Shown here one piece after another: positions 3,443 to 36,643 of a stretch of 64,000 nt of DNA. The stretch is from an uncultured Candidatus Poseidoniales archaeon (GTDB lineage Archaea > Thermoplasmatota > Poseidoniia > Poseidoniales > Poseidoniaceae). The position numbers and the translations under genes were made by a program. Location of the stretch: contig CAJIYT010000013.1 of the NCBI GenBank assembly GCA_905181715.1, forward strand, positions 10,942 to 74,941, in the 5' to 3' direction. How positions within the stretch are numbered: position 1 is the first letter of the stretch; every line of letters begins with the position of its first letter. The notes under the pieces are model-generated. The model was not told where the DNA came from. It was given only the letters and a program-made list of their open reading frames with translations, and searched no databases.

Positions 3443-4638
3443 GCACCACGCTCGATAAGAACCCGGATTGCTTCACACATGTCTTTCTCAGTTTGGAGAA
3501 TGAAATGGGCACCACTAGCATCTACTAAATGAGCACGAGGCATTTCTGGATTGTCAATATCTTCTAAACGATTAGCGATAGTAGCAGTCATCTGTGCCAT
3601 TTCATTTTGAGCGACTGCACGATGAACCAAATCTCGCTGCTTCACACCGCTCTCTAATTTGAAACCAATCCTACAAGCTCCTTCGCATAGCGGTGCTAAT
3701 TCCATTATGTGTTTGCGTGTTTCAACCAAATCCAAACGCAAACCTGATTGTTGTGAGGCCACCTTTCCTTGCGCTGCCTTCTCGATACGATAATCCAGTA
3801 CGGCTGCTGTGTGAATCCATGCATCAATTTCATCATTAGTCAGGGCAATCAGTTCATTGAGCATGTCTTCTGGATCAGGTGATTCGATTACCAGTGGCAG
3901 CCAAGTAGGTGCTCGCTCACTAGTGATACCACTAACGCATGTTATGTCCATGCCCCAGCGGTAGAGGTAATCAGCAATAGCAAAACCAGTACGGCCAGAA
4001 CTGGTATTTTGCAGGAATCTAATGTCGTCCATAGCAGATCGGTTTGCTCCGAGTGTGATGACAACTGAGGTTTGGTTGTCATTTACCAGATTACACAATT
4101 TGGCTACGATATGCTCGCAAGCAGGAGTCTTTCTCTTCCCTTCTTCTTGCGCACCCCACATCACTTTTGCACCTTGCTTTTGAAGTTCTTCTACCAAGTT
4201 GTCAGTAACTGGATCTTCGGCTAAATCGCCATGCATCGAGGGTATTAGCAAAATAGGGGTCTTTCTACTTCTTGCAGCACTCATAGCCATCAACAAGGGT
4301 CCATTCATCAAACCATGCAGATGGCTTGCGATAAGATTTCTTGTTGCAGGTGATACAATAATAGCATCCACTTCGGATAAAACCGACAAATCACTATCCC
4401 AATCACTGATAACATCGCCCTGCGATGACCATTTTACAGCTAAAGGAGTAATGACTTTCTGTGCTGATTGAGTCATGACTACGCTTACTTTTGCACCATA
4501 GCGCCTCAGTTCACGACATAGTCGTACAGTGTCAACAGCAGCGATGCCACCGCTTACGCCGAGCAGGATGTGTTTGCCGACCAATTGGCCGCCTTTCATC
4601 TCGACATCGGTGTCGCGCATTGTTACTGCCACAACCAC
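3439..4638 (-). CDS. coaBC: bifunctional phosphopantothenoylcysteine decarboxylase / phosphopantothenate-cysteine ligase (CoaBC/Dfp)
   Basis: N-terminal flavoprotein motif GKHILLGVSGGIAAVDTVRLCRELRRYGAKVSVVMT plus a C-terminal DFP ligase domain. The true start may be the internal ATG at 4620 or 4599 (MKGGQLVGKHILLG). Confidence 0.85.
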   Translation of the reverse strand: MVVAVTMRDTDVEMKGGQLVGKHILLGVSGGIAAVDTVRLCRELRRYGAKVSVVMTQSAQKVITPLAVKWSSQGDVISDWDSDLSVLSEVDAIIVSPATRNLIASHLHGLMNGPLLMAMSAARSRKTPILLIPSMHGDLAEDPVTDNLVEELQKQGAKVMWGAQEEGKRKTPACEHIVAKLCNLVNDNQTSVVITLGANRSAMDDIRFLQNTSSGRTGFAIADYLYRWGMDITCVSGITSERAPTWLPLVIESPDPEDMLNELIALTNDEIDAWIHTAAVLDYRIEKAAQGKVASQQSGLRLDLVETRKHIMELAPLCEGACRIGFKLESGVKQRDLVHRAVAQNEMAQMTATIANRLEDIDNPEMPRAHLVDASGAHFILQTEKDMCEAIRVLIERGA

Positions 4639-4687
4639 TTCCTCTTTTGCCCTTCGCCGACATCCTCATTGCCAATCAAAGAGTGCC

Positions 4688-5284
4688 ATGGCCATGCAGC
4701 GGGCTGATGAAATGGTTGCTGCAGGCTCAGCTCCGAGTCAGAGAGGGCCATTTCAGGCCATGCATTCTAGGCATAGTCTCTTGGTATTGGTTGATTTAGC
4801 AGTTCTTTCATATTTTATTTACCTGTTCACCGGCGGTCATTGGGCTACACAATTGATAATTGGATTAATCATCTGGAGTTCATATCGCTCTCGAACTCCT
4901 TGGGCTTATAACGCGGCGATAGCAATCTTGACCCTAGCAGCATTATTTTTCGCTAGCTTTGCCGCCATTAATCTCTATTCCTTCGCAGTAGGAAAGGATG
5001 TGATGAGTTTGTTATTCGCTTTCTTAATGGGTTGGGCTTCTTGGAGTTCTATCCGTCATATCAGAATTCATCTTCATCCAATTTATCGGGTATCCTACAT
5101 GAATGGGAAAATGCAACATTCTCCTCTTCACACAACAGAAATACTTGCAGGCTGCCCAAGTTGCATGGCAGTCTTAGCAATCGATCCTTTACAATTATCA
5201 CCAAGCGATAAGTGTCCGCATTGTGATGAACCACTGGTCAGTAGCGACACAGCAGCCCGCTTCGGATTAGATTCAGAGGAGTAA
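4688..5284 (+). CDS. hypothetical 4-TM membrane protein with C-terminal zinc ribbon
   Basis: Track ORF 4529-5284 overlaps coaBC on the opposite strand; the in-frame ATG at 4688 removes the overlap. Four hydrophobic helices are followed by CPSC-x18-CPHC and an acidic tail. Confidence 0.5.
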   Translation: MAMQRADEMVAAGSAPSQRGPFQAMHSRHSLLVLVDLAVLSYFIYLFTGGHWATQLIIGLIIWSSYRSRTPWAYNAAIAILTLAALFFASFAAINLYSFAVGKDVMSLLFAFLMGWASWSSIRHIRIHLHPIYRVSYMNGKMQHSPLHTTEILAGCPSCMAVLAIDPLQLSPSDKCPHCDEPLVSSDTAARFGLDSEE

Positions 5285-5314
5285 TCCCCTGGTATTTATT
5301 AGTCAAAGCAACTA

Positions 5315-6340
5315 TCAACGTGTTGCAAGGGTTAGGTTGCTCCACATTTCCTCGGGAACTTCCATTGCCAGGCGTAATCCGCCCATGGCTCCTAACTTAA
5401 CTGGGTCATCAACGACGTGAACTACAACTTCACCCATGTCCGAGAGACGTCTCTCGATCAGTGATCCTAATCCCTTGATAGCGGAACCGCCTCCGGCTAG
5501 AATCATATTACGACGGAATTGGTCGTGATATTCTGGGTTTGATTGTGCAATCAGCAACTTAACATTCTCGACGATTGGGTCGACAACAGATTCGCAAGCG
5601 GTTTGCATGCAATCGGTGATGTCCAACTTCATGGCCTTACCTTCGATTGAGAAATCGACCAATACTGCTTCATCAGGTGTTGATGCGGAAGTAAAGGAGT
5701 ATTGCTCCTTCCAGCGGCGTGCCATATCCTTGGTGATCTGAGCGCCGTTATACTTGCGCTGAATCTCTTCGATAAGGCGTCCATCAATTGAATCTCCTGC
5801 TTGGGAGATGTGCATTTGATCTCCAGGTCCCGGAATGGTTCCGTAAACACGGCAAAGATCGGTTGTTCCAGCACCTATGTCGATAACTAGGGAATGTTCA
5901 ATCATGTCTAGTGCATATGCAACAGCGAAAGGTTCAGAGATAATCATTGCTGCATTTACCGAACCGGCTGCTGCATCGAAAATAGCTGACTTGTCGACGT
6001 GACTGGCCTCAGCTGGAGCGCCGATTACAGCGATTACACGGTCGTAATCTTCTGGGTCAGCGAGATTGATTAGGTGAGTGATGAAGTGGGCGATAAACTT
6101 ACGATCATCTGGGGTATCCTTGATGACTCCCAATTCCAGTGGTCTGAATAGATTTAGAGCCAAGCGGTTCTTTAGTGCTTCATTTCCGAATAGAACATCT
6201 CTTTTGAGGAAATTCTTTGCGATTTGATCTTTTGGAGTGCCAATTACGGTCAACTCTTCTTCTTCATGACTGTCGCTTGAGACCATTACTGATCTGAAAG
6301 TTCCAAGGTCTACACCGATGTAGAGGACGTCTTCTGCCAT
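5315..6340 (-). CDS. actin-fold ATPase, MamK-like family
   Basis: Actin-fold motifs are GVDLGT (phosphate 1), VIDIGAGTTDLC (phosphate 2) and ILAGGGSAIKGLG (adenosine). It matches recalled MamK along the whole length (VIGAPAEAS, ISEPFAVAYALD, GTIPGPGDQ, KEQYSF, NPEY, LRLAMEVPEEMW). Start taken at ATG 6340 (MAEDVLYIGVDLG); the track ORF extends to TTG 6394. Confidence 0.8.
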   Translation of the reverse strand: MAEDVLYIGVDLGTFRSVMVSSDSHEEEELTVIGTPKDQIAKNFLKRDVLFGNEALKNRLALNLFRPLELGVIKDTPDDRKFIAHFITHLINLADPEDYDRVIAVIGAPAEASHVDKSAIFDAAAGSVNAAMIISEPFAVAYALDMIEHSLVIDIGAGTTDLCRVYGTIPGPGDQMHISQAGDSIDGRLIEEIQRKYNGAQITKDMARRWKEQYSFTSASTPDEAVLVDFSIEGKAMKLDITDCMQTACESVVDPIVENVKLLIAQSNPEYHDQFRRNMILAGGGSAIKGLGSLIERRLSDMGEVVVHVVDDPVKLGAMGGLRLAMEVPEEMWSNLTLATR

Positions 6341-6433
6341 ATTCACTCGCCGTTCTTTGCCAAGGCAAGACCCCTTATGAATCATCCCTTCCAAGAGGCT
6401 GTGAGATGAGCCGGAGTGGATTCTATAGAAGGG

Positions 6434-7468
6434 TTAACACCAAGACTCACATGGGCTACAATACCATGCTGCATAGTCTGGATACAATTCAGCCATTCCT
6501 GCACATTGTGTACACTCTTTGAGAGCGTGTTCTCCGAATAGTTGCATGACTATCTGCACGTGTTGGTTGTCATCGATACCCAGTTGTTGGCGCATAGCCC
6601 ATAGCATCTGATCTTCTGAAGGTGAAATAATGCCATCCTCAAGTACCAATTTTACTACGGTCATATAATCTTCAAGTATAGTGATTTGACGAGGGTCCAG
6701 ATTCACTCCACCTTTCTCTGCAATGATATCGGTACCACCTGGGTCATCGACAAATAGCACCAAAGATGCAGCTTCTAGTTCGGCAGTTCGCAATTCCAAT
6801 AGAATCACTGCTCCGTCTTGATTGGCATATACCAAACTTGAATGGCGATTAATTACATTTGTAATCGATCTTGCGGTATCCTCAGCTGAGCGTCCACGGC
6901 GCCAGCCGGTAGTGCTCTGTTCATCAAAGATGTAGAATTCAGTTCCCTTTCCAGGGTATTCAATACGTATCTCCTCGCCACCGTCAAAACCATTGGCAAC
7001 TATTGTGATACTACCGACGGTGGTGTCGACCAAATTATCATCATCATCGAAACTGATCATCAATGGTTTACGCTCCTCGGAGGCAGCATTGAAATGACCA
7101 CTCATCCCCGTCATCCATTTGTCCTCAAGACGTTGTAAACTCGCTTCCTGTTTCTTATTCAAGCCTTTACTAATACCCAGTACTTCGCTTAATTCACCAT
7201 TTTCCATTTCCTGCTTGAATTGATCAATCATCTCAGAATCTTGATGGTAAGTTGGGCGCTCAATGCGCTTTGAACTTGTTGCATTGGGATCTTTCCATTC
7301 ATAGTTACAACGACCACATTGGAGATAACTTTCCATCGAGGATGGTTGCGATTCACCACCGCATCGAGGACAGTCTCCTTCCTCTTGAACCTCAATATTT
7401 TCTTGGGCCTCGCGACGACCGCCTCTGATGCCTAATCCCGCCATAGCCCCAGACTTCAGATGAGGCAT
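6434..7468 (-). CDS. hypothetical protein with N- and C-terminal zinc ribbons
   Basis: 344 aa with CPRC-x14-CGRC near the N-terminus and CTQC-x14-CSPC at the C-terminus. The middle is an acidic, mixed alpha/beta region, followed by a helical DG..SPSE..LGID segment that is weakly TerB-like. GAGGAAAG SD lies about 9 nt upstream of ATG 7468. I recognise no family. Confidence 0.6.
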   Translation of the reverse strand: MPHLKSGAMAGLGIRGGRREAQENIEVQEEGDCPRCGGESQPSSMESYLQCGRCNYEWKDPNATSSKRIERPTYHQDSEMIDQFKQEMENGELSEVLGISKGLNKKQEASLQRLEDKWMTGMSGHFNAASEERKPLMISFDDDDNLVDTTVGSITIVANGFDGGEEIRIEYPGKGTEFYIFDEQSTTGWRRGRSAEDTARSITNVINRHSSLVYANQDGAVILLELRTAELEAASLVLFVDDPGGTDIIAEKGGVNLDPRQITILEDYMTVVKLVLEDGIISPSEDQMLWAMRQQLGIDDNQHVQIVMQLFGEHALKECTQCAGMAELYPDYAAWYCSPCESWC

Positions 7469-7505
7469 TTGAAGGCTTTCCTCGTTTAATGAACTATATT
7501 CTTCA

Positions 7506-8300
7506 TCAGTAAAGGGCTTTCAATCCGTAACGTATCAATCCCTCTTGGGCATATATTCTTCTGACGACTAATTCTACAAGTGAGCCTATTTCTGGTTTCT
7601 TTTCCTCGTCATCTGCAAGTAAGAATACGCCTTTAACTCCACATTCGAGCGTGAGCAATAATGTGGTCATTCCATTGAGGATTGGAGAGCGGAATGCGAA
7701 TTCTGAGGGTGATCCTGCAGCAGCAGATTCAGTCCATGATTCAATAATACCCCTGCGTGGGAGAGGTAATGTATTCATTTCTCGATTATTTTCTCTTCCA
7801 GGCCAGAAATAATTATCGCCATCTTTTTGTGCTAGTAAGCGAAGTCGTGATTCGAGCCCTGTGAGGTATTGTTGCTCGCTTACATATGCTCCTTGTGACA
7901 CAGAACGCAATTCCTCATCCCATGCTCTTCTCATCTCCAGATGGAATGCAGCATCCATTTCTTCACCATCTTCTGCAGTCGAATGAATCATACTTGAATC
8001 CTTAGTGATAGAAAGTGAAGCATCTTTGTGTACGACTATTTTCCACTCGCCATCTTCTGATACTACATTGAATCCATAAGCGGCAATTACCCTTTCATCT
8101 ACTTCACTCGGGCATTGAATAGTTGTGACCTCACATTCTTCTTCTAGGGCGCACAATCCAGTGATTGCAAGGCATGTGTAGTCACTGTCGGGGCCGTGGA
8201 CTCTATCTCCATCCAAGATAAACCTTGAACGAACTAAAACACCACTTGCTGCCAGACAGAGAATGTGTCCGTGTAAGGGGATGCATTCATTCGCAGCCAT
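7506..8300 (-). CDS. DUF35-like OB-fold protein (thiolase/HMG-CoA synthase scaffold family) with atypical N-terminal domain
   Basis: The C-terminal 95 aa or so match the DUF35 OB-fold pattern (GIIESWTES..., GSLVELVVRRIYAQEGLIRYGLKA). ATG 8300 shares one base with the thiolase stop (TGATG). The usual 4-Cys rubredoxin-like ribbon is not visible. Confidence 0.55.
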   Translation of the reverse strand: MAANECIPLHGHILCLAASGVLVRSRFILDGDRVHGPDSDYTCLAITGLCALEEECEVTTIQCPSEVDERVIAAYGFNVVSEDGEWKIVVHKDASLSITKDSSMIHSTAEDGEEMDAAFHLEMRRAWDEELRSVSQGAYVSEQQYLTGLESRLRLLAQKDGDNYFWPGRENNREMNTLPLPRRGIIESWTESAAAGSPSEFAFRSPILNGMTTLLLTLECGVKGVFLLADDEEKKPEIGSLVELVVRRIYAQEGLIRYGLKALY

Positions 8301-9469
8301 CAAATCTCCCTCCCCAAAATATGCACAGCACAAGTTGCTCCACTGCCACCTACATTGTGACACAGTGCATCTTCGACATCTAGAACCTGGCGGGATGGTT
8401 CGACCTCGTTTCTTAATTGCTTGAATGCCTCTACGATTTGTCCGACGCCAGTAGAACCTAGTGGGTGACCTTTAGACTTCAGTCCTCCACTCGGATTGAT
8501 TGTGACATCTCCTTGGTTGAGAATGCCGCGCCCCTCGCGAGCAAAAAGGCCGCCTTCGCCGCGATTGGCAAATCCAAGGTCTTCACATGCCATCACTTCA
8601 GCTATGGTAAAACAGTCATGTACCTCGGCTAATCCTATGTCATTAGCCGTTAAACCAGACATAGAATAGGCTTTTTTCGCTGCACGTTGACTAGCGAGGA
8701 TCTGTGTGGATGATTCACGGTCATGTAAGGCAAGATAATCCGAGGCTGCACCACTGCCTTTTACCCATACTGGTGTATCACTTAGTTTGCGAGCCACGTG
8801 GTCTGCTGCTAATATCACACAAGACGCACCATCTGAAGTTGGGCAACAATCGTAGAGAGTCAACGGGTCGGCGACCATGAAACCGGAGGCTGCTTTTTCA
8901 AAAGAGACCTCCTTGCGAATATGTGCGACTTCGTTTGCAAACCCATGTGCATGGTTTTTGACTGCAACGTGGACTAAATCATCATGATTGGAGTCAAACT
9001 CATGGAAATATCGCCGAGCCATCAATGCATAGGTTGCAGGAAATGTAAGTCCAGCAAGTCTCTCCCACTCGGTATCACCACTAACTCCAAGCCAGAAGCG
9101 CTTTCTCTCCGGTGTCAAATCATTCATCTTCTCGATACCGCCTGCGACCACGACATCTGCTTCGCCACTTTTGATCGCCATCCAAGCATCACGGAATGCA
9201 AAACCAGAGGATGCACAGGCATTCTCTACACGACGCACAGAAATACCTTCCATTCCAGAATGTTCGGTCATTAATGCTGCAGTATTGCCAATTTGTTGGC
9301 CGCCGAAAGCGGTACTACCGATATAGGCCTCTTCGATCAAAGAGGACTCTAAGCCCTTGTCAACACTTGATATTGCCTTCTGGGCTGCCTCAGCCCACAT
9401 TTCTTTCAATGTTGATGAAAGATTGCCATATGGTGTCTGGCCGGCACCGATGATGGCGACATCTACCAT
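8300..9469 (-). CDS. acetyl-CoA C-acetyltransferase (archaeal thiolase, SCP-x type)
   Basis: MVDVAIIGAGQTPYG start, active-site region VENACASSG, and C-terminal NPSGGLKSKGHPLGSTG and CHNVGGSG thiolase signatures. Start taken at ATG 9469; the track ORF extends to 9529. Confidence 0.85.
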   Translation of the reverse strand: MVDVAIIGAGQTPYGNLSSTLKEMWAEAAQKAISSVDKGLESSLIEEAYIGSTAFGGQQIGNTAALMTEHSGMEGISVRRVENACASSGFAFRDAWMAIKSGEADVVVAGGIEKMNDLTPERKRFWLGVSGDTEWERLAGLTFPATYALMARRYFHEFDSNHDDLVHVAVKNHAHGFANEVAHIRKEVSFEKAASGFMVADPLTLYDCCPTSDGASCVILAADHVARKLSDTPVWVKGSGAASDYLALHDRESSTQILASQRAAKKAYSMSGLTANDIGLAEVHDCFTIAEVMACEDLGFANRGEGGLFAREGRGILNQGDVTINPSGGLKSKGHPLGSTGVGQIVEAFKQLRNEVEPSRQVLDVEDALCHNVGGSGATCAVHILGREI

Positions 9470-9560
9470 ATGACCGCCAGCATCACTTTGCTGTTGAACC
9501 TCTCGGTCGTTTTGGTGCATAGGATTCAAGAACAGGCCCCTTGTCGACGAGTCGATTGCG

Positions 9561-10253
9561 ATGTTACGTCAATGTAGATCCCACGGCCATTTTGTTGGTA
9601 GCAACTGCCCAGAATGCAATGCTGAAGGCAAGTTTATCATGTCAGATAGAGAGATGAATAGTATAGGTCGCATCCTTGCACTGGTTTTGCGTCATGCTCC
9701 GGAGAAATTTGGTATCGAGATGGATATCAACGGCTGGGTAAACGCACTCGACCTTTCGGTAAAGGTGCAAGAGCAACGTCGTAACTTCCACTGGTTGAGG
9801 AAGTGGCACTTTGAAGCCATTGCTTCGACAGACGACAAAGGTCGATACCAGGTCGAGGGAGATATGATCAGGGCAACCTACGGTCATTCTCTCGAACTTG
9901 AACTGGATCTGCCAACTGATAATATTCCTGATGAGTTATACTGGCCTTGTGAAGAGGACGCAGTAGAAACCCTACTTGAATATGGAATTACCAAAGGTGA
10001 GCGCAAGCACATTCACCTCTCCAAAACCATCGCCAATGCAATGGAAGCAGGCCATGTGAGAATCTCTAGGCCGACCATCCTCGAAGTGGATACCGTTCGT
10101 GCAATCGCTGAAGGAAACATCATTTGGCGTGCAGGAAAGACTGTTTTCCTCTGTGAAGGAGTCCCAGCGGAATTCCTTTGCAAGGTCGATTCCGATGATC
10201 CAGTCATCCAAGAGATGGTTGCGACTTGGGAAAAAGAAGAAGAAGAAGAGTGA
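9561..10253 (+). CDS. kptA: RNA 2'-phosphotransferase Tpt1/KptA with N-terminal zinc ribbon
   Basis: LALVLRHAPEKFGIEMDINGWV, GRYQVEGDMIRATYGHS and HIHLS motifs of the Tpt1 family. N-terminal C-x2-H...CPEC ribbon and a poly-Glu C-terminus. Confidence 0.8.
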   Translation: MLRQCRSHGHFVGSNCPECNAEGKFIMSDREMNSIGRILALVLRHAPEKFGIEMDINGWVNALDLSVKVQEQRRNFHWLRKWHFEAIASTDDKGRYQVEGDMIRATYGHSLELELDLPTDNIPDELYWPCEEDAVETLLEYGITKGERKHIHLSKTIANAMEAGHVRISRPTILEVDTVRAIAEGNIIWRAGKTVFLCEGVPAEFLCKVDSDDPVIQEMVATWEKEEEEE

Positions 10254-10254
10254 T

Positions 10255-10626
10255 TCACTCAAAATAATGTCCACAAGATGGGCAGAAGTCTAACCCTCCT
10301 TCGATTAGTGCGGAGCACTTGTTGCATGAGCCTACTGCTGATGCCGCCGGAGTGTGGCTCCTACGGGCAGCAGCCATCTCCTCGTCGGCGATAGCTTCTA
10401 CCATCTTTAACGGGTCACGTCCTAATTTCATCACATGCTTCCAGCGATTGCTAAAGGTGATCGCTTCCTGCATGGCAGCCTCGATTTGCCATTGCCTTTG
10501 ACCTCGCTCCTCCTTATCGGGGATCTTGTCTGCAATATCCATCTCGGCCTGAAGTTGACGGAGAAATTCATCAAGAGTCGGCTCACCACTCTTCTCATCC
10601 ATGCCATTGCTAACAACGGCTCCCAT
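10255..10626 (-). CDS. hypothetical protein with C-terminal zinc ribbon
   Basis: ATG 10626 avoids overlap with the divergent ipk gene. Helical N-terminal part, then CNKC-x10-CPSC at the C-terminus. Confidence 0.45.
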   Translation of the reverse strand: MGAVVSNGMDEKSGEPTLDEFLRQLQAEMDIADKIPDKEERGQRQWQIEAAMQEAITFSNRWKHVMKLGRDPLKMVEAIADEEMAAARRSHTPAASAVGSCNKCSALIEGGLDFCPSCGHYFE

Positions 10627-10672
10627 TTCAAACCATGCGAACCAATTTGACCAACCTACGCCAGCGTGAACT

Positions 10673-11434
10673 ATGACCGGCGAGTTGATCGTGCTAAAAT
10701 GGGGCGGCGGTCTCATCACTCACAAGTCAGATGAGTGTAGCCCTGACCTTGAGTCAATAGCCGAACTTTCCAAAGTAGTAAACACCTTGATCTCTGAAGG
10801 TAATGAACTTATTTTGGTTCATGGTGCTGGTTCATATGGTCATATCAAAGCAAAAAAATCCCGCTTATCTGAAGGTGATATTGGTCTAATTGGTCAATTG
10901 GAAGCAGTTGCAGAAGTTCGAAAAGATATGTTGGAATTGAATCGGTTGGTGATGAAAGATTTGGATGGCGAGGCTTATCCTCCCCACTTATGGGCTACAG
11001 AAACCGGCCCCGATTTCCACGGGAAATTACCCCTCAACCCTCCTTTGACAATTGTTTTCGGGGATGTAGTTGATTGTGCTAATAATTCATGGGGTATCTT
11101 GTCTGGTGATGATCTAGTTCTTCGCTATGCAATAGAATGCAACGCTGCACGAGTTGTTTTTGCAATTCGTGGCGTAGATGGTTTGCTTACGGCTCCACCT
11201 GATGAGGGTGGTGAATTAATTGAGGAAATACATGGTCGTGCAGACTACCGTGGTTCTCATAGTGAAGGTATTGACGTCACTGGTGGTATTTCTCTAAAAG
11301 TGATAAGGGCTGAAAAAATAGCATTATCTGGGATTGAAGTTTACTTCGTTAATGGCGAAAATATGAACTCGGTTTACAATGCCTGTAGCGGGAAAACGGC
11401 GACTGGGACTAAATTCTTCAGCCGGAATGCTTGA
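10673..11434 (+). CDS. ipk: isopentenyl phosphate kinase (amino-acid kinase fold)
   Basis: IVLKWGGGLITHK and LVHGAGSYGH motifs are typical of archaeal IPK. It sits 37 nt upstream of the IDI::GGPPS gene. Confidence 0.8.
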   Translation: MTGELIVLKWGGGLITHKSDECSPDLESIAELSKVVNTLISEGNELILVHGAGSYGHIKAKKSRLSEGDIGLIGQLEAVAEVRKDMLELNRLVMKDLDGEAYPPHLWATETGPDFHGKLPLNPPLTIVFGDVVDCANNSWGILSGDDLVLRYAIECNAARVVFAIRGVDGLLTAPPDEGGELIEEIHGRADYRGSHSEGIDVTGGISLKVIRAEKIALSGIEVYFVNGENMNSVYNACSGKTATGTKFFSRNA

Positions 11435-11471: not shown

Positions 11472-13196
11472 ATGGCTTCGTACGACGTTGATGACGTTCC
11501 AACCCAGGACATAGGCTCTATTGCCGCTTCTGTCCTTTCAGCAAGTGATGCTGAACAGAGTAAATTAATGTCAGAATCAGTGATTCTAGTTGATGAATGG
11601 GACAATTACCTCGGTAGTGCTTCTAAGGCAGACTGTCACTACGGTGCAGGTGCTTATCATCGTGCATTCAGTGTCCTATTATTCGGAAGTGATAATCGCC
11701 TATTATTGCAAAAGAGAGCAGCAGATAAGATAACCTTTCCAGGGGTTTGGGCTAACTCATGTTGTTCGCACCCTTTGGCTTCAGATGAGGAAATGGATCT
11801 TGAAAACGCCATTGGAGTGAAAAGGGCGGCTATACGTAAACTTGAGCAAGAACTTGGCATAAACCCTGAACAAATATCGGTTGATGATTTTTCATTCATC
11901 ACCCGCATGCGTTATCAATCTCGCATGAACCAAGAATGGATTGAACGTGAAATAGATCATATTCTAATCATTCGTGCGGATGTCGATATAGCAGCAAATC
12001 CCAATGAAGTAGATGAGGTTCGCTGGGTTAGTCGTGATGAACTCGAAGATATGCTAATTGATGAGGGTGACGAGATAATCGCACCCTGGTTCAGATGTAT
12101 AGCTGCTCGTCTGATGGATGTCAAGTGGTGGGAAGGCGTCCCAGAATATGATGACAAAATCCATGATATGGGCGATGTATCGCACATGCTCGCTTCGGCA
12201 ATAGGTGCTGATTTGACCACCAGTATCGCCGAAGTTAAGCCTTTGGTGGAAAAACGAATCGAAAGAGCGTTGACACACACTTCGCACAAGAGACTCTCTG
12301 ACGCCATGATGCATTTGGTCGATGGTGGAGGTAAGAGACTGCGTGCAACCCTACCTTGGCTTGTGGCTAAGGCGGTTGGCGACACGCATGCAGGAATGCT
12401 AGATGTTGGAGCAGCAATCGAGACCATCCATAATTTCACCTTGGTTCATGATGATATCATGGACGATGATAATATCCGTCGTGGCCGTCCAGCAGTCCAC
12501 ATAGAATACGGATTGCCGACAGCGATAAACGCAGGCGATGCAATGTTAGCTATCGCCTTCGAAGCGTTATCGGTTGCAGAAGGTCTTGACCCGTTGATGT
12601 TACCCTTCCTCGTAAAGAGAATTGGACGTATGGTGCGAAGAGTATCAGAAGGACAACAACTCGACATAGAATTCGAGGATAGGCTTGCGGTTAGTGAGGA
12701 TGAATACCTTGAGATGATTAGAGGCAAAACCGCAGTGATGTTCCTCACCTGTGCTGAAGTAGGTGCACATATGGCAGGAGCAGATGATGAAACAATTCAA
12801 TGCATGCATGATTGGGGTTTAGCTATTGGAATGTGCTTCCAATTAATGGATGATTTGATTGACGTTATTTCAGATTCAGAGATCTTGGGCAAACCGTCAG
12901 GTAGTGACGTCATACAGGGAAAGCGCACACTGATGGTAATACATGCACTTGCTCAAGATGATTGCAAAGCCAAGCAAGATTTACTCTCTGTTTTGGGAAT
13001 TGGTGCTGAAGCTAGTGCCGAGCAGATAGCATTGGGCCGTGATTCTCTCGAAGAACTTGGATCTATTACCTATGCACGTGAAAAAGCCGAGGCTTATCAT
13101 GCAACAGCGCATCTCTGCTTAGACCGCATTGCAGATAGTCCTGCACTAAAGGCACTTAGGGAATTGACCGATCATCAACTAAATCGAATCAGCTAA
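11472..13196 (+). CDS. fusion protein: type-1 isopentenyl-diphosphate isomerase (Nudix fold) + trans-polyprenyl (geranylgeranyl) diphosphate synthase
   Basis: The N-terminal half carries HRAFSVLLF, LLLQKRAADKITFPGVWANSCCSHPL, EREIDHIL and PWF (eukaryote-like IDI1). The C-terminal half carries FARM LVHDDIMDDD (about 12450-12470) and SARM FQLMDDLIDV, plus GKPSGSD..GKRT. GAGGGAG SD precedes ATG 11472. Confidence 0.85.
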   Translation: MASYDVDDVPTQDIGSIAASVLSASDAEQSKLMSESVILVDEWDNYLGSASKADCHYGAGAYHRAFSVLLFGSDNRLLLQKRAADKITFPGVWANSCCSHPLASDEEMDLENAIGVKRAAIRKLEQELGINPEQISVDDFSFITRMRYQSRMNQEWIEREIDHILIIRADVDIAANPNEVDEVRWVSRDELEDMLIDEGDEIIAPWFRCIAARLMDVKWWEGVPEYDDKIHDMGDVSHMLASAIGADLTTSIAEVKPLVEKRIERALTHTSHKRLSDAMMHLVDGGGKRLRATLPWLVAKAVGDTHAGMLDVGAAIETIHNFTLVHDDIMDDDNIRRGRPAVHIEYGLPTAINAGDAMLAIAFEALSVAEGLDPLMLPFLVKRIGRMVRRVSEGQQLDIEFEDRLAVSEDEYLEMIRGKTAVMFLTCAEVGAHMAGADDETIQCMHDWGLAIGMCFQLMDDLIDVISDSEILGKPSGSDVIQGKRTLMVIHALAQDDCKAKQDLLSVLGIGAEASAEQIALGRDSLEELGSITYAREKAEAYHATAHLCLDRIADSPALKALRELTDHQLNRIS

Positions 13197-15481: not shown

Positions 15482-15585
15482 GGTAAACACCTTTGTGGAT
15501 GTGTCGGCCACCTGCAAGGGGTTTATGAAACCGACTCATATTACGCTTGTTCAATCAAGCAACTGAGAACAGATGGCTACTGTTA

Positions 15586-32012: not shown

Positions 32013-33017
32013 TTGTCTATTCAGGCGAAGGCTGATTACAGAGGCCATAATCGAAACATCGTGTTCGTCGACAGGTCACTCGCAACATTGCTCGGCGCGC
32101 TTGGTATGCTCATACTTGGTGTGACCTGGCATTCGCGTAGCGCATTTATGCAGCGCTTCTCGCCTTTAGGTTGGATATTGACGGGTTTCTTTTTCTTCAA
32201 CGATACCAGCACATATATCGAAAAATCAGATATGGTACTTACTATCATGTCAGCTGCATGTCTTCCGGCTGCTATCGGTATTTCGATTTGGGAGAAAAAG
32301 AGTGTTCGAAAAGAGGAATCTGAAGCACTGCATTGGTTCCGTGGTGCTATTTTCTATGCGGGTTTCCCCTACATGCTGATAGCACATGTTCCATGGTTGA
32401 ATGTCTTGGCTATTTGGTTTGTCGCTTGGCAATCAGGCCTGTTTCTATCTTTTGCTGGTTTAGATGGAATCACTATGGGAGAGACCATGGTAAATACGAC
32501 AACTGGTTCAATACCATGGGCTGAATGGACTGGGAATAAGTGGTTTATTGCCCAGCCCATGGCAGAGCATCCATTCCATACCGAGTTATTGATGGCAGAT
32601 GGTTCAGCACTCGGAATCAATTTTGTTCTTGCCTGCACCGCGATTCAATCGATGATTATTTTCGTAGGAGCAACCGTTGTTTTGGATATCGATGTACGTA
32701 AGAGAATCCGTGCATTAATCATAACGTTGCCAGTTATTCACATCCTCAACCTATTCCGCAACGCTGGTTTGATTTGGTTACATCATACCTATGAAGGTTG
32801 GAATTGGCTGGGCTTATCCATGTTTGACTTCGGTCATCTATATGCGGCTAGAGTAGCATCCTTGGCAGCCATGTTCTTGATGGCGATAATACTCTTTGAA
32901 TTATTGCCAACACTTCATCGCAACGTATTGGTTCTCATGTCACCACTTGGTGTTGATGCGGGACTTCCTGAGATTCAAGACCAAGAATCATCTGGTGATG
33001 ATCTGCTCCAAGTCTGA
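32013..33017 (+). CDS. exosortase/archaeosortase-family polytopic membrane protein (tentative)
   Basis: About 8 TM. The candidate catalytic Cys is in FVLACTAIQSMIIF, followed by ILNLFRNAGLIWL (Arg) and FDFGHLYAARV, in the order expected for exosortase/archaeosortase. Start uncertain (TTG 32013 or GTG 32061). The 3' end overlaps the convergent surface-protein gene by 43 nt. Confidence 0.45.
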   Translation: MSIQAKADYRGHNRNIVFVDRSLATLLGALGMLILGVTWHSRSAFMQRFSPLGWILTGFFFFNDTSTYIEKSDMVLTIMSAACLPAAIGISIWEKKSVRKEESEALHWFRGAIFYAGFPYMLIAHVPWLNVLAIWFVAWQSGLFLSFAGLDGITMGETMVNTTTGSIPWAEWTGNKWFIAQPMAEHPFHTELLMADGSALGINFVLACTAIQSMIIFVGATVVLDIDVRKRIRALIITLPVIHILNLFRNAGLIWLHHTYEGWNWLGLSMFDFGHLYAARVASLAAMFLMAIILFELLPTLHRNVLVLMSPLGVDAGLPEIQDQESSGDDLLQV

Positions 33018-36000
33018 CCACTACCACTAGGCCATTCAATCGATTCATTACCATCGTCTCCAAGCATTCCCATCAGGTTTGCAGGAGGCTTTTCAACAGC
33101 TTCATCACCATCGAATAGATCGTTTAGGTTTAGGTCGATAGAGGCAGCTGGAATCGGTTGGCTGAGATTACCAACATCGATTGGCATCATTGCCATCTCA
33201 GATTCAGAAGATTGATTTTTGATATCCTCAGATGGTGACATTAGATTAGGTTCATCCATTCCTAGCATCACATCTGTCATCGAGTCGAAAGAAGTAGTGT
33301 CACTCCACGCTTCATCCTCACTATTCTTCTGACTGCGCATCGAAAATAGCATTATTGCAAGGAACACTATCAAGATTAGTCCAATTATTCCACCACCAGC
33401 GTAGACAAGATCGTTTGGGACGCTAGCAATTATATCGGAATTGTCACCAACACCGTCCCCATCGCTATCCTTTTGCTCAGTACCATCATCTGGGAATGCA
33501 TCTTCATCATCTGGTGTGCCATCTCCATCACGGTCAAAGGCACTGTAAGTTGTTGTACAAGCTAGTGATTCACGACTTACTTCAGCATCGGAGATTTTGG
33601 TATTGGCATCACGGTCAATAACCAAAAGGTTGAATTCATTGCTCCAAGACAAGGCAGAAAGGGCCTCGATGCCAACTTCATCAGCACCATATTGCTCAAA
33701 GACCAGTGTTATTTCATTGCTACAAGAACAAACTTCTTGCTTTAATTCTTGTAAACTGACCATGCCATCATCATTAAGATCTACTCTGACAAATATATCT
33801 TCGTCGATATCGTCTTGCCAAGCTTCATTTACGTCAAGTAGACCGTTTTCGTCTTTGTCACTAACAGTAAACACCTGCTCAGATATTTGTTGACAGGTTA
33901 GGATTGAAGTCGGTTCATCCTCCTTCGGTTCCGGTTCGACTAACCCGCCTTCTTCTTGCCAAGAAGCGATAATTGACACGCCACTAAAATCATCTATAGC
34001 TGTGACAGTGATATCGAACCTTCCTGCTGCAGGTAGGAATATTTCTACGGATTGTCCAGTTCCATCGCCTTCACTTACTTCCATTATTTCTTGACCCTGG
34101 GTATTTTGTCGACCTGGGCCACCACCCATGCCTTCATCGTCAAAAACGAATTGTCTTCGCTCACCTTCGACGGTGATGAGTAGAGACCCTTGACCTGCAA
34201 ATGTTTTGATGCTCAATTGATTACCAGGTTCAACTAATGTCACATAGAATAACAATTCTTCTCCGGCAGGGGCTTCAAGACCTTGCATTTCATCGTCAGA
34301 ATATAATTCCAATGGTAAACCATCGTATTCCCACACATATAAATCCTCAAAAGAGGCTGTAATGAATACGTTTGAAAATACCTTTTGAGATGTTATCATG
34401 ATATTCCAGCGGCCTGGAGTTGGGTTGTTAAAACCAATTTTATCATTTGAGTCAGGGGCAGCAGATGCATGATCAAAGGTTAATTGAGTAGGAACTAATT
34501 CATGACGCATGTATATTGTTGCTTCACCAAAGCCCTTGGCTAGGTCGACTTCCAATCGCTCTACCCCCGTGGTAACTTCGATGTAAAAGTGCTGTTCTAA
34601 GCCGGAATAGCCTGTCATCGGTCCATGTTCAATACCATCGGTTAATTCAATTGCATCCTCAGGATCAACATTTGTTGGAGCATAGGTGAAATCTGCTTGG
34701 ATACTTACTTCACTGAAACGGCCATATCCTTGAACCACAATATAGTAAATGCCAGGTTCCGCAGCAAAGAGATGTACAGATTCCTCTGGACCGGGGTTAG
34801 TCGATTGATCTAGGGTTTTAGTTGAAGAAGCATCTTGACTAATTTCCTCTGTAATCCCTATGTCAATAAAATCATCATTGATTCCGATTTGACTTGTTGA
34901 AGGGATGTAATCTTTCTGAATATACAAGTCAGCATTGCCCCTTCCTCCAAATGTTTTAACCTGTAATTCCGAAAGATTATCTTTCAAGTCGACATAGAAA
35001 TATTGCACATTTTCAGCACTATTACCATTATTTATGGATTTTAAACCTGTTACAGCCACTCCGTCATTTAATTCAGTCATCTCTTCTAGTGGTGGGGGAA
35101 CCGCGGCTTCTTGCCATGATGCACCGATTGTTATTTCGGGGATGTCCGATTCTGATGTTAGCACAATCCACCAAGTTCCATTGTCTGGCATCGACCATTG
35201 CTCCGATAGATAGAACCACTCAGATTGAATGTGCTTATCGTGCTCCCATGGTGATGGGATGTAGCCATTTGCGACGTAGATTTCTACTCCTTGAGATTCG
35301 AAACCTCCTCCTCCTTGTCCCCATCCGCCTGTCCACGATTGTAGAGTAAGGGAAAGTGTATTGTCCGGTATTTCAAGATAGAATAACAATGTCTTATTTT
35401 TGGAAATATCCGGTAGATCAAGGAATTCATCATTCTCCAGTTTCACAGCTTGAGCGACAATTCCGCCATCTGGCATAACCCAAGCGGCGCCGTTAATGAT
35501 TCCCTCTCTACTATTCTCATCAAAAGTAGAAGTACCCTCGCCTTCGTTAAAGGTCCAATTGCTAAATTTATTCCAGAAAACTTCCGCAGCCTCTTCGCCA
35601 TTGCCATATGAAGAGTAAGGTGAAATGGCGACATCATCTATCATGCCAGCAAAATGGTTACAATCACAGGCAGCACCCATTCTTCCGATGTATAACTCGT
35701 CACAAGTATCATTGTTCTCATAGCAGCTATTTGAGCCAAAATCTCCAGTTGGAATCTTTGCATCCTCGGAGGATATATTGCCTGCAAATTCATCATCGAT
35801 GAAGAATTTACCACCTCCATTACCCGGATATATGTCTACTCTAACTTTGACCCAATCATCACTCGGAATCGTCAAATTAGATTGTGGGTGTTTTGAGAGG
35901 CTATATTCACTGGCATAAGCGAGTTTATCGCCATCGAGGTATAGACCCCAGCCATAATCACCTTTCATGGTGATGAATTGCTTTCCTTCCAATTCAAAAG

Positions 36001-36643
36001 GTTTGATCATTGCCTCGATGACTATACCCTCATTCGTATTGAACTCGAACTCGGAATCGTAATTTATTTCTATTTCCACATAGTCATCCTCACCATCAAA
36101 ACGCAATGCGAAATCAGCACCTGGCCCAACTTCTACTACTCCGAATACCGGGAAATATTGTGGGTCATCTTCTAAGTCATTCCAAGAGTTTTCCAAGATA
36201 TCACCTAAATTTGTACCGGTGATGTGGACATAATCCTCATCGCTACCCTGCACTGGTTGCCCTTCTCCCCAGTTACGGTAGGTGAATGGTGTGCCATCGT
36301 GCCAGCGGAAATCTCCTTCGGTATTGTAGTCCGAAAGACCAATCCAGATGTGACGTGTTGCGTTTTCAGTGGCGGCGAAAGTGTCGAACAACCATTGGTT
36401 CTCTGCAGCATTGTCAACGGTGACCAAGAAGCCATCAAGACCTCTAGCTGCCTCGGCAGCATCGCTCCACGAAGAGGCCGAAAGCAAATGGTAAGTGTTG
36501 TTATTGGCGGGGTTAATCACGGTCTCAATAATTTCTATTCCAGTGCTATTTTCAGCACTTGTAGACATAGTCATAGGACCAAAGCCAACCATCAGCAATA
36601 TTAGCAATGCGAGAAAACTTTGCCTTTTGCGATTATTTGTCAT
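32975..36643 (-). CDS. giant type-I membrane surface protein: signal peptide, C-type lectin-like domain, LamG/ConA-like domain, about 4 PPC-like beta-sandwich modules, EF-hand/TSP3-like Ca-binding repeats, TM, acidic cytoplasmic tail
   Basis: Signal peptide: FLALLILLMVGFGP. CTLD: WSDAAEAARGLDGFLVTV..ENQWL, HIWIGLSDYNTEGDFRWHDGTPFTYRNWGEGQP, WNDL. LamG: ALRFDGEDDYVEI ... IDDVAISP. PPC-like repeats: YFYVDL..GRGNADLYIQ, HFYIEV..GFGEATIYM, LFYVTL. Ca-binding: DKDENGLLD, DLNDDGMVSLQE, DRDGDGTPDDEDAFPDDGTEQKDSDGDGVGDNSD. TM: GIIGLILIVFLAIMLF, followed by about 130 aa. Confidence 0.85.
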   Translation of the reverse strand: MTNNRKRQSFLALLILLMVGFGPMTMSTSAENSTGIEIIETVINPANNNTYHLLSASSWSDAAEAARGLDGFLVTVDNAAENQWLFDTFAATENATRHIWIGLSDYNTEGDFRWHDGTPFTYRNWGEGQPVQGSDEDYVHITGTNLGDILENSWNDLEDDPQYFPVFGVVEVGPGADFALRFDGEDDYVEIEINYDSEFEFNTNEGIVIEAMIKPFELEGKQFITMKGDYGWGLYLDGDKLAYASEYSLSKHPQSNLTIPSDDWVKVRVDIYPGNGGGKFFIDDEFAGNISSEDAKIPTGDFGSNSCYENNDTCDELYIGRMGAACDCNHFAGMIDDVAISPYSSYGNGEEAAEVFWNKFSNWTFNEGEGTSTFDENSREGIINGAAWVMPDGGIVAQAVKLENDEFLDLPDISKNKTLLFYLEIPDNTLSLTLQSWTGGWGQGGGGFESQGVEIYVANGYIPSPWEHDKHIQSEWFYLSEQWSMPDNGTWWIVLTSESDIPEITIGASWQEAAVPPPLEEMTELNDGVAVTGLKSINNGNSAENVQYFYVDLKDNLSELQVKTFGGRGNADLYIQKDYIPSTSQIGINDDFIDIGITEEISQDASSTKTLDQSTNPGPEESVHLFAAEPGIYYIVVQGYGRFSEVSIQADFTYAPTNVDPEDAIELTDGIEHGPMTGYSGLEQHFYIEVTTGVERLEVDLAKGFGEATIYMRHELVPTQLTFDHASAAPDSNDKIGFNNPTPGRWNIMITSQKVFSNVFITASFEDLYVWEYDGLPLELYSDDEMQGLEAPAGEELLFYVTLVEPGNQLSIKTFAGQGSLLITVEGERRQFVFDDEGMGGGPGRQNTQGQEIMEVSEGDGTGQSVEIFLPAAGRFDITVTAIDDFSGVSIIASWQEEGGLVEPEPKEDEPTSILTCQQISEQVFTVSDKDENGLLDVNEAWQDDIDEDIFVRVDLNDDGMVSLQELKQEVCSCSNEITLVFEQYGADEVGIEALSALSWSNEFNLLVIDRDANTKISDAEVSRESLACTTTYSAFDRDGDGTPDDEDAFPDDGTEQKDSDGDGVGDNSDIIASVPNDLVYAGGGIIGLILIVFLAIMLFSMRSQKNSEDEAWSDTTSFDSMTDVMLGMDEPNLMSPSEDIKNQSSESEMAMMPIDVGNLSQPIPAASIDLNLNDLFDGDEAVEKPPANLMGMLGDDGNESIEWPSGSGQTWSRSSPDDSWS

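Follow-up and report, generated by a model that had tools for sequence, protein, structure and literature searches.

The magnetosome actin MamK forms ATP-dependent, double-stranded, non-staggered filaments. Outside magnetosomes, the nearest published MamK-related actins are BeeR and salactin. BeeR, a MamK-related actin of the Verrucomicrobiota, assembles into a three-stranded tube (PDB 8r2n; PMC11929497), and its hallmark is a disordered N-terminal extension of 30-50 amino acids (PMC11929497). For salactin, MamK was reported as the nearest subfamily (PMC10746226). In this study, we analyzed two adjacent genes within a stretch of 64,000 nucleotides (contig CAJIYT010000013.1; this whole 64-kb stretch is referred to as the window) of an uncultured archaeon. 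The first encodes a MamK-like actin-fold ATPase of 341 amino acids, identified by profile and PDB sequence matches and termed actin A (5315..6340, minus strand). The second, located directly upstream on the same strand, encodes an acidic, soluble protein of 344 amino acids with two Cys4 zinc ribbons, termed the partner (6434..7468, minus strand). The host is a member of Candidatus Poseidoniales (Marine Group II), which agrees with the planktonic archaeal setting assumed in an initial annotation of this DNA.

Marine Group II archaea are among the most abundant archaea of the surface ocean, and to our knowledge nothing is known about their cell biology, because no member has been cultured. Actin A and its partner are a real, undescribed and order-wide MamK-like actin cassette. 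In the literature searched, no paper linked MamK to Poseidoniales or Marine Group II, and the papers naming both Marine Group II and MreB were unrelated to the topic. In the two reference genome papers on Marine Group II, actin, MreB, FtsZ and a cytoskeleton go unmentioned, and a survey of lineage-specific archaeal families, which lists 199 families specific to Poseidoniales, does not discuss actin A or the partner. Within this literature, where no paper on either gene was found, the statement of the initial annotation that the system had not been described holds.

Family assignment and conservation of actin A

The open reading frame of actin A can be read as 5315-6394(-) from a TTG codon or as 5315-6340(-) from an ATG codon, the latter giving the protein of 341 amino acids. 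All orthologs begin at the ATG of a MAED or MAEE terminus and comprise 340-341 amino acids, and the stretch 6341-6394 aligns between lineages as a non-coding, promoter-like block. Therefore, the true start is at position 6340 and the gap to the partner gene is 93 nt, by which the earlier estimate of 39-93 nt is settled at its upper end. Both open reading frames of the pair and the actin motifs GVDLGT, VIDIGAGTTD and AGGGSAIKGLG were found as described in the initial annotation.

Searches of actin A against the PDB with phmmer gave three MamK entries as best matches, with E values from 3e-73 (5ljw) to 5e-72 over residues 2-336, followed by BeeR with 1e-43 and MreB with about 1e-15 (best 8e-16). 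The similarity to MamK (PDB 5ljw, 5ljv, 5jyg; NCBIfam NF040964) runs collinearly from end to end, nearly free of insertions and deletions, and BLASTP identity was 38% for MamK, 33% for BeeR and 30% for MreB. The catalytic residues E143 and D161 of MamK correspond to E136 and D154 of actin A, which are invariant in an alignment of the orthologs together with a second Poseidoniales actin (paralog B, see below), and the MamK motifs listed in the initial annotation are conserved as well. In actin A, the actin fold is complete and the catalytic residues are retained.

With the NCBIfam models, actin A reached 354.9 bits for MamK, 215 for BeeR, 97 and 90 for the MreB models PRK13927 and TIGR00904, and 57 for salactin, all below the curated cutoffs of 400 (NF040964), 530 (NF053558), 293 and 366 (PRK13927 and TIGR00904) and 400 bits (salactin), respectively. 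For calibration, true MamK representatives scored 472-508 bits with the MamK model, an NCBI-named MamK of Nitrospira 425 and a KSB1-type bacterial fusion protein 410. Among the archaeal proteins, an ortholog from the subgroup MGIIb scored 368, the window actin 355 and paralog B 330 bits. The top Pfam family of actin A was MreB_Mbl with 94.7 bits. The Pfam volactin model was not reached (26.2 bits, cutoff 35), and the broad Pfam Salactin model was passed with 47.9 bits (cutoff 27.1), which is far below the MreB_Mbl and MamK scores. The match to ParM was weak (E 4.5e-4). In public records, actin A is labeled 'rod shape-determining protein MreB', because Pfam contains only the broad MreB_Mbl model and no MamK model.

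Thus, the resemblance to MamK that had been noted in the initial annotation extends over the full length and lies far above that to MreB, FtsA, Hsp70, ParM, salactin and volactin in both profile and PDB searches. The assignment to the MamK clade itself was too strong, since the score of 355 bits stays below the family cutoff of 400 and since actin A falls into a Poseidoniales clade of its own in a tree with unsupported backbone. Judged by sequence, MamK is the closest characterized relative of actin A, which is MamK-like and nearer to MamK than BeeR is, yet forms a distinct subfamily outside the magnetosome MamK clade. Besides score and clade, it differs from MamK in its archaeal host and in its neighborhood, which holds a zinc-ribbon protein and not MamJ or other mamAB genes. 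In Pfam scans of the 45 other larger open reading frames of the window, no magnetosome gene of the mamAB type was found and all hits were to housekeeping families, as had been claimed before. Like BeeR, actin A is a MamK-related protein of a non-magnetotactic host, and BeeR is its second-best match. Actin A stays far below the BeeR cutoff, BeeR forms a clade of its own, and actin A lacks an N-terminal extension of the BeeR type, because the match to the model begins at residue 6. Archaeal cytoskeletal proteins of the actin family further comprise crenactin with its arcadins, Ta0583, salactin and volactin. Actin A is unlike salactin and volactin, whose models it matches with only 57 bits (NCBIfam, cutoff 400) and 26 bits (Pfam, cutoff 35), respectively; crenactin and Ta0583 were absent among the PDB matches listed for it, and no arcadin-like genes are located near it.

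Relatives of actin A were collected by searching 1.84 billion cluster representatives exhaustively, which yielded 1,394 sequences, and a neighbor-joining tree was calculated from 85 sequences (334 columns, 100 bootstraps, MreB as root). Past fragments from Poseidoniales, the nearest relatives, with 43-48% identity, were the protein P0248 and 14 long proteins of bacteria that carry a MamK-like domain at the C-terminus. In the tree, the Poseidoniales actin A sequences formed a clade with a bootstrap value of 100, with P0248 as sister (85) and a clade of KSB1-type bacterial fusion proteins next out (60). MamK core sequences (69-72) and BeeR (91) each formed their own clade, and the support of the backbone nodes between the archaeal clade and the MamK core was below 25 throughout.

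P0248 was also considered as a representative of a second archaeal order, which was rejected on account of the source names on its contig. Since FtsY, GGGP synthase and a coiled-coil protein encoded there are named as Poseidoniales, Thalassarchaeaceae or Poseidoniaceae, P0248 is a Poseidoniales paralog, here termed paralog B. It has 852 close homologs, the best 120 of which share 84-100% identity and are named from both families. Paralogs A and B are 45% identical. The locus of paralog B contains L18Ae, an S8 peptidase of about 950 amino acids, actin B, a coiled-coil protein of 426 amino acids, GGGP synthase, an ABC transporter and rhodopsin. The 426-amino-acid protein, which is non-enzymatic, has an acidic tail and carries the JGI label 'chromosome segregation ATPase', is encoded downstream of actin B and was always present (L011-L013, 8001-10381; L095-L098, 5001-7378). 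Paralog B is absent from the 64-kb window. According to these sequences, the order Poseidoniales has two families of MamK-like actins, A and B, known from separate contigs. They are sister clades within one order, are both highly conserved and labeled 'MreB' in source records, and each has one conserved non-enzymatic neighbor; they differ in locus and in this neighbor, which in the case of paralog B lies downstream, is a coiled-coil protein and is unrelated to the zinc-ribbon protein.

The KSB1-type bacterial fusions (P0244-P0259) have 700-1232 amino acids. They begin with a coiled coil and end with a MamK-like actin, and the two are joined by a very long linker of low complexity. A Rosetta-stone fusion of actin and partner was looked for among them and discarded, as their N-termini are coiled coil and low complexity without zinc ribbons or similarity to the partner. 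These N-termini also showed no similarity to the coiled-coil neighbor of paralog B (E 0.22). In one bacterial locus (L014, 4864-13315), such a fusion gene lies beside a second, stand-alone actin gene, three Roadblock/LC7 genes and a gene for an Arf/Ras-like GTPase.

For conservation, the window was compared with five divergent lineages. Identity to the window amounted to 77-85% for actin A and 77-83% for EF-2 in the same genome pairs, 51-65% for the partner, 50-72% for Tpt1, 45-59% for CoaBC, 50-64% for a fusion of isopentenyl-diphosphate isomerase and polyprenyl synthase (IDI-GGPPS), 33-46% for isopentenyl-phosphate kinase (IPK), and 22-33% for the membrane protein encoded downstream of actin A. 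By this measure, the constraint on actin A is typical of core translation factors. A relative of actin A was present in 527 GTDB species genomes, and named homologs of both actin and partner come from both Poseidoniaceae and Thalassarchaeaceae. Two GTDB records named 'Verrucomicrobiales bacterium' (L048) and 'Rhodobiaceae bacterium' (L094) contain typical Poseidoniales actin contigs with 86% identity, and the Poseidoniales gene order around actin is kept in L048. Both contigs were probably mis-binned into bacterial metagenome-assembled genomes.

The double-zinc-ribbon protein and its linkage to actin A

The two Cys4 ribbons of the partner, C33PRC36-x14-C51GRC54 at the N-terminus (7307..7372, minus strand) and C319TQC322-x14-C337SPC340 at the C-terminus (6449..6514, minus strand; three short strands predicted), have equal spacing as noted before, and none of the eight cysteines varies among 19 orthologs, the most distant of which share 56% identity. 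An arm ahead of the N-terminal ribbon is predicted to be disordered, yet its residues R15, G17, R18, A21 and N24 are invariant. Between the ribbons, there is a central beta/alpha domain of about residues 146-255 (6704..7033, minus strand), which is a confident part of the AlphaFold2 model, and a helical domain of about residues 256-315 (6524..6703, minus strand) with the invariant motif DGIISPSEDQxLW. The AlphaFold2 model, calculated with 48 sequences, reached a mean predicted local distance difference test score (pLDDT) of 73, with 82-92 for residues 145-340. It consists of the arm with low confidence, the ribbon at residues 33-59, helices with low confidence at 74-123, the confident beta/alpha part at 150-252, the helical part at 265-314 and the C-terminal ribbon. 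The protein has an isoelectric point (pI) of 4.5, that of the arm being 5.1, and no membrane segment.

A set of 5.8 billion proteins contained 302 clusters of partner homologs, and wherever the source organism is named, it belongs to Poseidoniales. In the source records they are labeled 'hypothetical' or 'ribosomal protein L37AE'. Arm and N-terminal ribbon together indeed gave a weak profile match to ribosomal protein L37Ae (E 3e-3); with the L37Ae/eL43 model (PRK03976, cutoff 87 bits, about 90 amino acids), the partner of 344 amino acids scored 13.5 bits, and by these scores the L37AE label is a mis-annotation. Further hits stayed below threshold, namely Zn_ribbon_IS1595 and Zn_ribbon_NUD for the N-terminal ribbon and TerB for the helical domain (E 0.033). 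When the whole protein and its separate domains were scanned, no Pfam, NCBIfam or PDB sequence match was obtained, and Foldseek found no whole-chain fold match, so the description of the partner as an orphan was justified. For the central domain, Foldseek aligned about 110 residues with accessory domains found in phage tail proteins and in the flagellin FliC (E 1e-6 to 1e-3; root-mean-square deviation 3-4.4 Å; up to 24% identity). This fold is recurrent and therefore uninformative on function.

Linkage of the two genes was examined in 167 informative loci from both families that had sequence room beside the anchor gene. The actin-centered set comprised the best 80 GTDB species loci of the 527 genomes, all from Poseidoniaceae and 79 of them with upstream sequence. 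The partner-centered set comprised 80 metagenome loci around the Thalassarchaeaceae type of partner (56-98% identity to it), 74 of them with room. The partner gene was located immediately upstream of the actin gene on the same strand in 165 of the 167 loci, including 79/79 actin-centered GTDB loci; actin followed immediately downstream in 74/74 partner-centered metagenome loci, and the adjacency was also present in loci L001-L008 and L099-L102. Adjacency of the two genes in related genomes, which had been set beforehand as the test on which the pairing could fail, was thereby confirmed. The spacer between the genes is near-constant with 75-140 nt. In the flanks, the thiolase gene occurs in two unrelated types or is absent, and downstream of actin, the membrane protein gene may follow directly, be shifted by 2-6 kb or be missing. 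Since the flanks vary and the junction stays, the partner-actin junction is the most stable one in the region. As far as gene order within one order of archaea can tell, its stability exceeds what collinearity alone predicts.

The spacer contains a TATA-like box, TTCATAAG (6374..6381, minus strand), which is preceded by AGGnAT and lies 34-41 nt upstream of the actin ATG. The arrangement AGGnAT..TTCATAAG is kept in 14/14 aligned lineages, including the rearranged locus L009, in which no partner gene lies upstream. This box probably represents the TATA box of actin A itself, and actin and partner are probably not an obligate operon. The motif TTCATAAR occurs three times in the whole window. One box of the same type, TTCATAAA at 15522-15529(-), precedes the probable EF-2 ATG by about 40 nt; its presence at both EF-2 and actin suggests TTCATAA as the TATA-box consensus of the organism. 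Directly after the stop codon of the partner, there is a perfect 10-bp palindrome, TTCTATAGAA (6421..6430), which is present as a single copy in the window and whose core TATAG is conserved across the aligned Poseidoniaceae loci. It may serve as terminator, regulator site or second TATA box. Upstream of the partner, the stretch 7476..7493 (minus strand) carries TTCATTAA (7486-7493), which resembles the TATA-like box of actin, and GAGGAAAG (7476-7483), located 8-15 nt upstream of the partner ATG. This stretch may act as a promoter-like region for the partner.

Possible function of the pair and alternative explanations

As a joint explanation, which we regard as fairly probable, actin A would be an order-wide chromosomal actin of the MamK/BeeR branch that represents a Poseidoniales subfamily of its own, forms filaments and has the zinc-ribbon protein as co-worker. 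By analogy to MamK and BeeR, it would polymerize with ATP, and the filaments would be a housekeeping cytoskeletal element in cells without magnetosomes, possibly with roles in cell shape, division, or the positioning of DNA or envelope machinery. Actin and partner would be transcribed from separate promoter-like elements, yet kept side by side. The partner would be composed of a conserved arm, an L37Ae-like ribbon, a helical linker, the beta/alpha domain, a TerB-like helical hairpin and the second ribbon. It might work with the filament as regulator or cargo adaptor; this is the most likely reading of its role, to which we give close to even confidence. Such a role would be analogous, not homologous, to those of MamJ, ParR, AlfB and the arcadins, and an analogy exists inside the clade, as paralog B likewise keeps one conserved non-enzymatic neighbor. 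More doubtful is an extended form of this explanation, according to which the two paralogs are a dedicated cytoskeleton acquired from bacteria, each with its own lineage-specific adaptor, paralog A with the double-zinc-ribbon protein and paralog B with the acidic-tailed coiled-coil protein, for positioning of chromosomes, the division site or envelope machinery. Acquisition from bacteria is suggested by the sister relationship with the KSB1-type bacterial actins.

Several observations weigh against the joint explanation. The phylogeny is a distance tree with unsupported backbone. In one lineage (L009/L010), the actin gene is 2.1 kb away from the partner gene and on the opposite strand; there, the partner follows the thiolase gene after 22 nt, and actin keeps its convergent membrane-protein neighbor as well as its own conserved TATA-like box. 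No homolog of the partner was found beside the bacterial relatives or paralog B. The region 4000-10500 contains no iterons or centromere-like repeats, but only two-copy repeats at chance level and no tandem array. Also, synteny within a single order is weak functional evidence, because the region is largely collinear across Poseidoniales. Finally, physical coupling was modeled with a read-through chain of partner, natural 31-aa linker and actin using AlphaFold2 monomer weights and unpaired alignments; the natural read-through is usable as linker because both open reading frames share the reading frame. The fused chain reached a predicted template modeling score of 0.44 and a pLDDT of 66.8 with no gain of confidence in either half, and the disordered parts of the partner stayed below 50. 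Due to the monomer weights, the shallow unpaired alignments and the lack of predicted aligned errors, this test has low power, and its outcome is unsupportive rather than decisive. Of the claim of the initial annotation that the actin has a dedicated adaptor, the adjacency therefore stands, and the actin's own box, the split in L009/L010, the fused-chain model without complex and the missing centromere-like repeats speak against it; an adaptor role of the partner is suggested by synteny.

Much of this would also follow if the adjacency were inherited gene order only, with the zinc-ribbon protein being a core gene whose job is unrelated to actin in a young order with largely collinear genomes. 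We take this possibility seriously, though it is clearly the less probable one. It fits the survival of the separate promoter-like box of actin through the rearrangement in L009/L010, the fact that neither gene was lost when the pair was split there, the absence of a complex in the fused-chain model, and the state of the surrounding genes, which between IPK and IDI-GGPPS on one side and CoaBC and ProRS on the other form a block that is largely conserved too. It does not account for the difference between the junctions: every other one in the block varies, by the thiolase, the DUF35-like gene described below or insertions of 2-6 kb after actin, whereas the one between partner and actin is intact in 165/167 loci with its spacer of 75-140 nt.

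It is improbable that the pair is a chromosomal segregation cassette of the ParMRC or AlfAB kind, in which the partner binds DNA via its L37Ae-like arm and ribbon and couples it to the filament. The layout of an actin gene with an adjacent small adaptor gene corresponds to that of ParM/ParR/parC, AlfA/AlfB and Alp7A/Alp7R, where the gene of an actin-like ATPase likewise adjoins a dedicated partner gene; the similarity of arm and ribbon to the rRNA-binding L37Ae, weak as it is (E 3e-3), and the conserved palindrome between the two genes would also fit. However, iterated centromere-like repeats are missing, the partner is acidic throughout including its arm, it is far larger than the adaptors of the plasmid cassettes, and neither its AlphaFold2 model nor fold searches gave a ribbon-helix-helix or helix-turn-helix fold. 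Moreover, the pair is order-wide and resides in a housekeeping region of the chromosome instead of on a plasmid, and actin A matches ParM with E 4.5e-4 only.

Still far less likely, the partner could belong with the mevalonate-pathway thiolase encoded upstream, as a DUF35-like scaffold, and not with actin. Archaeal DUF35 scaffolds carry a Cys4 ribbon, the partner lies directly after thiolase in Thalassarchaeaceae, and in L009/L010 it stays 22 nt behind thiolase with actin moved away. The partner was searched as such a scaffold, and neither a DUF35 or DUF35_N hit with its separate domains at E values up to 10 nor a fold match of this kind was obtained. In addition, a separate gene with a DUF35-like OB fold, 7506-8300(-), is already present between thiolase and partner, and about 10 loci as well as L065 keep actin beside the partner without an adjacent thiolase. 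The weakest alternative, an archaeal MreB acting as rod-shape determinant, has the source label and the top Pfam family MreB_Mbl on its side and is hardly tenable, because the latter is a broad superfamily model in a database without a MamK-specific one, the NCBIfam MreB scores of 90-97 bits compare with cutoffs of 293-366 and a MamK score of 355, and MreB entries of the PDB appear at E 1e-15 versus 3e-73 for MamK; membership in the MreB family is rejected, and a role in cell shape is still compatible with the data.

Returning to the joint explanation, the EF-2-like conservation of actin A in every lineage and the existence of a second paralog point to a central filament system. Through it, the MamK-like branch of actins would reach beyond bacteria to the archaea and beyond magnetosomes, and the two-paralog system, if true, would join crenactin/arcadins and the haloarchaeal salactin/volactin as a third kind of actin system in archaea. 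It is of interest because its host group carries ecological weight, actin A is as conserved as EF-2, a second paralog exists and, as with BeeR, biochemical tests are within easy reach. The analysis also corrects a systematic mis-annotation, since entries derived from hundreds of metagenome-assembled genomes name the actin 'MreB' and the partner 'ribosomal protein L37AE'.

Neighboring genes and further observations

Downstream of actin A and convergent to it, a multi-pass membrane protein whose C-terminus carries a CPSC-x17-CPHC ribbon is encoded (4529..5284, plus strand). Its true start is likely near 4688-4694, giving about 196 amino acids. Orthologs with 22-53% identity directly follow actin in most loci and are still located with actin in the rearranged loci L009/L010; in the 'Poseidonia sp.' group, the gene is displaced or absent. 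The protein might tether the filament to the membrane, and its membership in the actin system is uncertain.

Upstream of the partner, the DUF35-like gene (7506-8300, minus strand) encodes 264 amino acids without a Pfam hit, the C-terminus resembling a DUF35-type OB fold. It overlaps by stop and start codon with the thiolase gene (8300-9529, minus strand) and occurs only in some Poseidoniaceae. In other lineages, the thiolase position is empty or taken by a thiolase of an unrelated type (22% identity). Further upstream, a small zinc-ribbon protein is encoded at 10255-10719(-), with 154 amino acids as called and 107-133 in relatives. It has weak hits to DUF7575 and Zn_ribbon_15, its ribbon is C-terminal, and the gene is kept beside Tpt1 and IPK across the order.

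In the Pfam scan of the 64-kb window, the 45 larger open reading frames other than the pair belonged to archaeal housekeeping families or had no Pfam match. The former include EF-2, S7, exosome subunits, proteasome alpha, SBDS, diphthamide synthase, TiaS, Lhr, RFC, TrkAH, ArsA, SRP54, ProRS, transketolase, transaldolase, OPT, a P-type ATPase, SurE, CoaBC, Tpt1, IPK and the IDI-GGPPS fusion. The latter is encoded at 11472-13196(+) with 574 amino acids; it combines NUDIX-type (IPP isomerase-like) and polyprenyl synthase domains, and the fusion is kept in related loci. Base composition is uniform along the window.

Seven genes on a JGI metagenome contig (L171, Ga0114994_10002555) match the window with 98-100% identity, namely those for Tpt1, thiolase, the DUF35-like protein, the partner, actin, the membrane protein and CoaBC. 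Therefore, the source population of the window was also sampled in that metagenome. At 32975-36643(-), the window encodes a protein of 1222 amino acids with C-type lectin and pre-peptidase C-terminal (PPC) domains, which is large and probably secreted or located at the cell surface.

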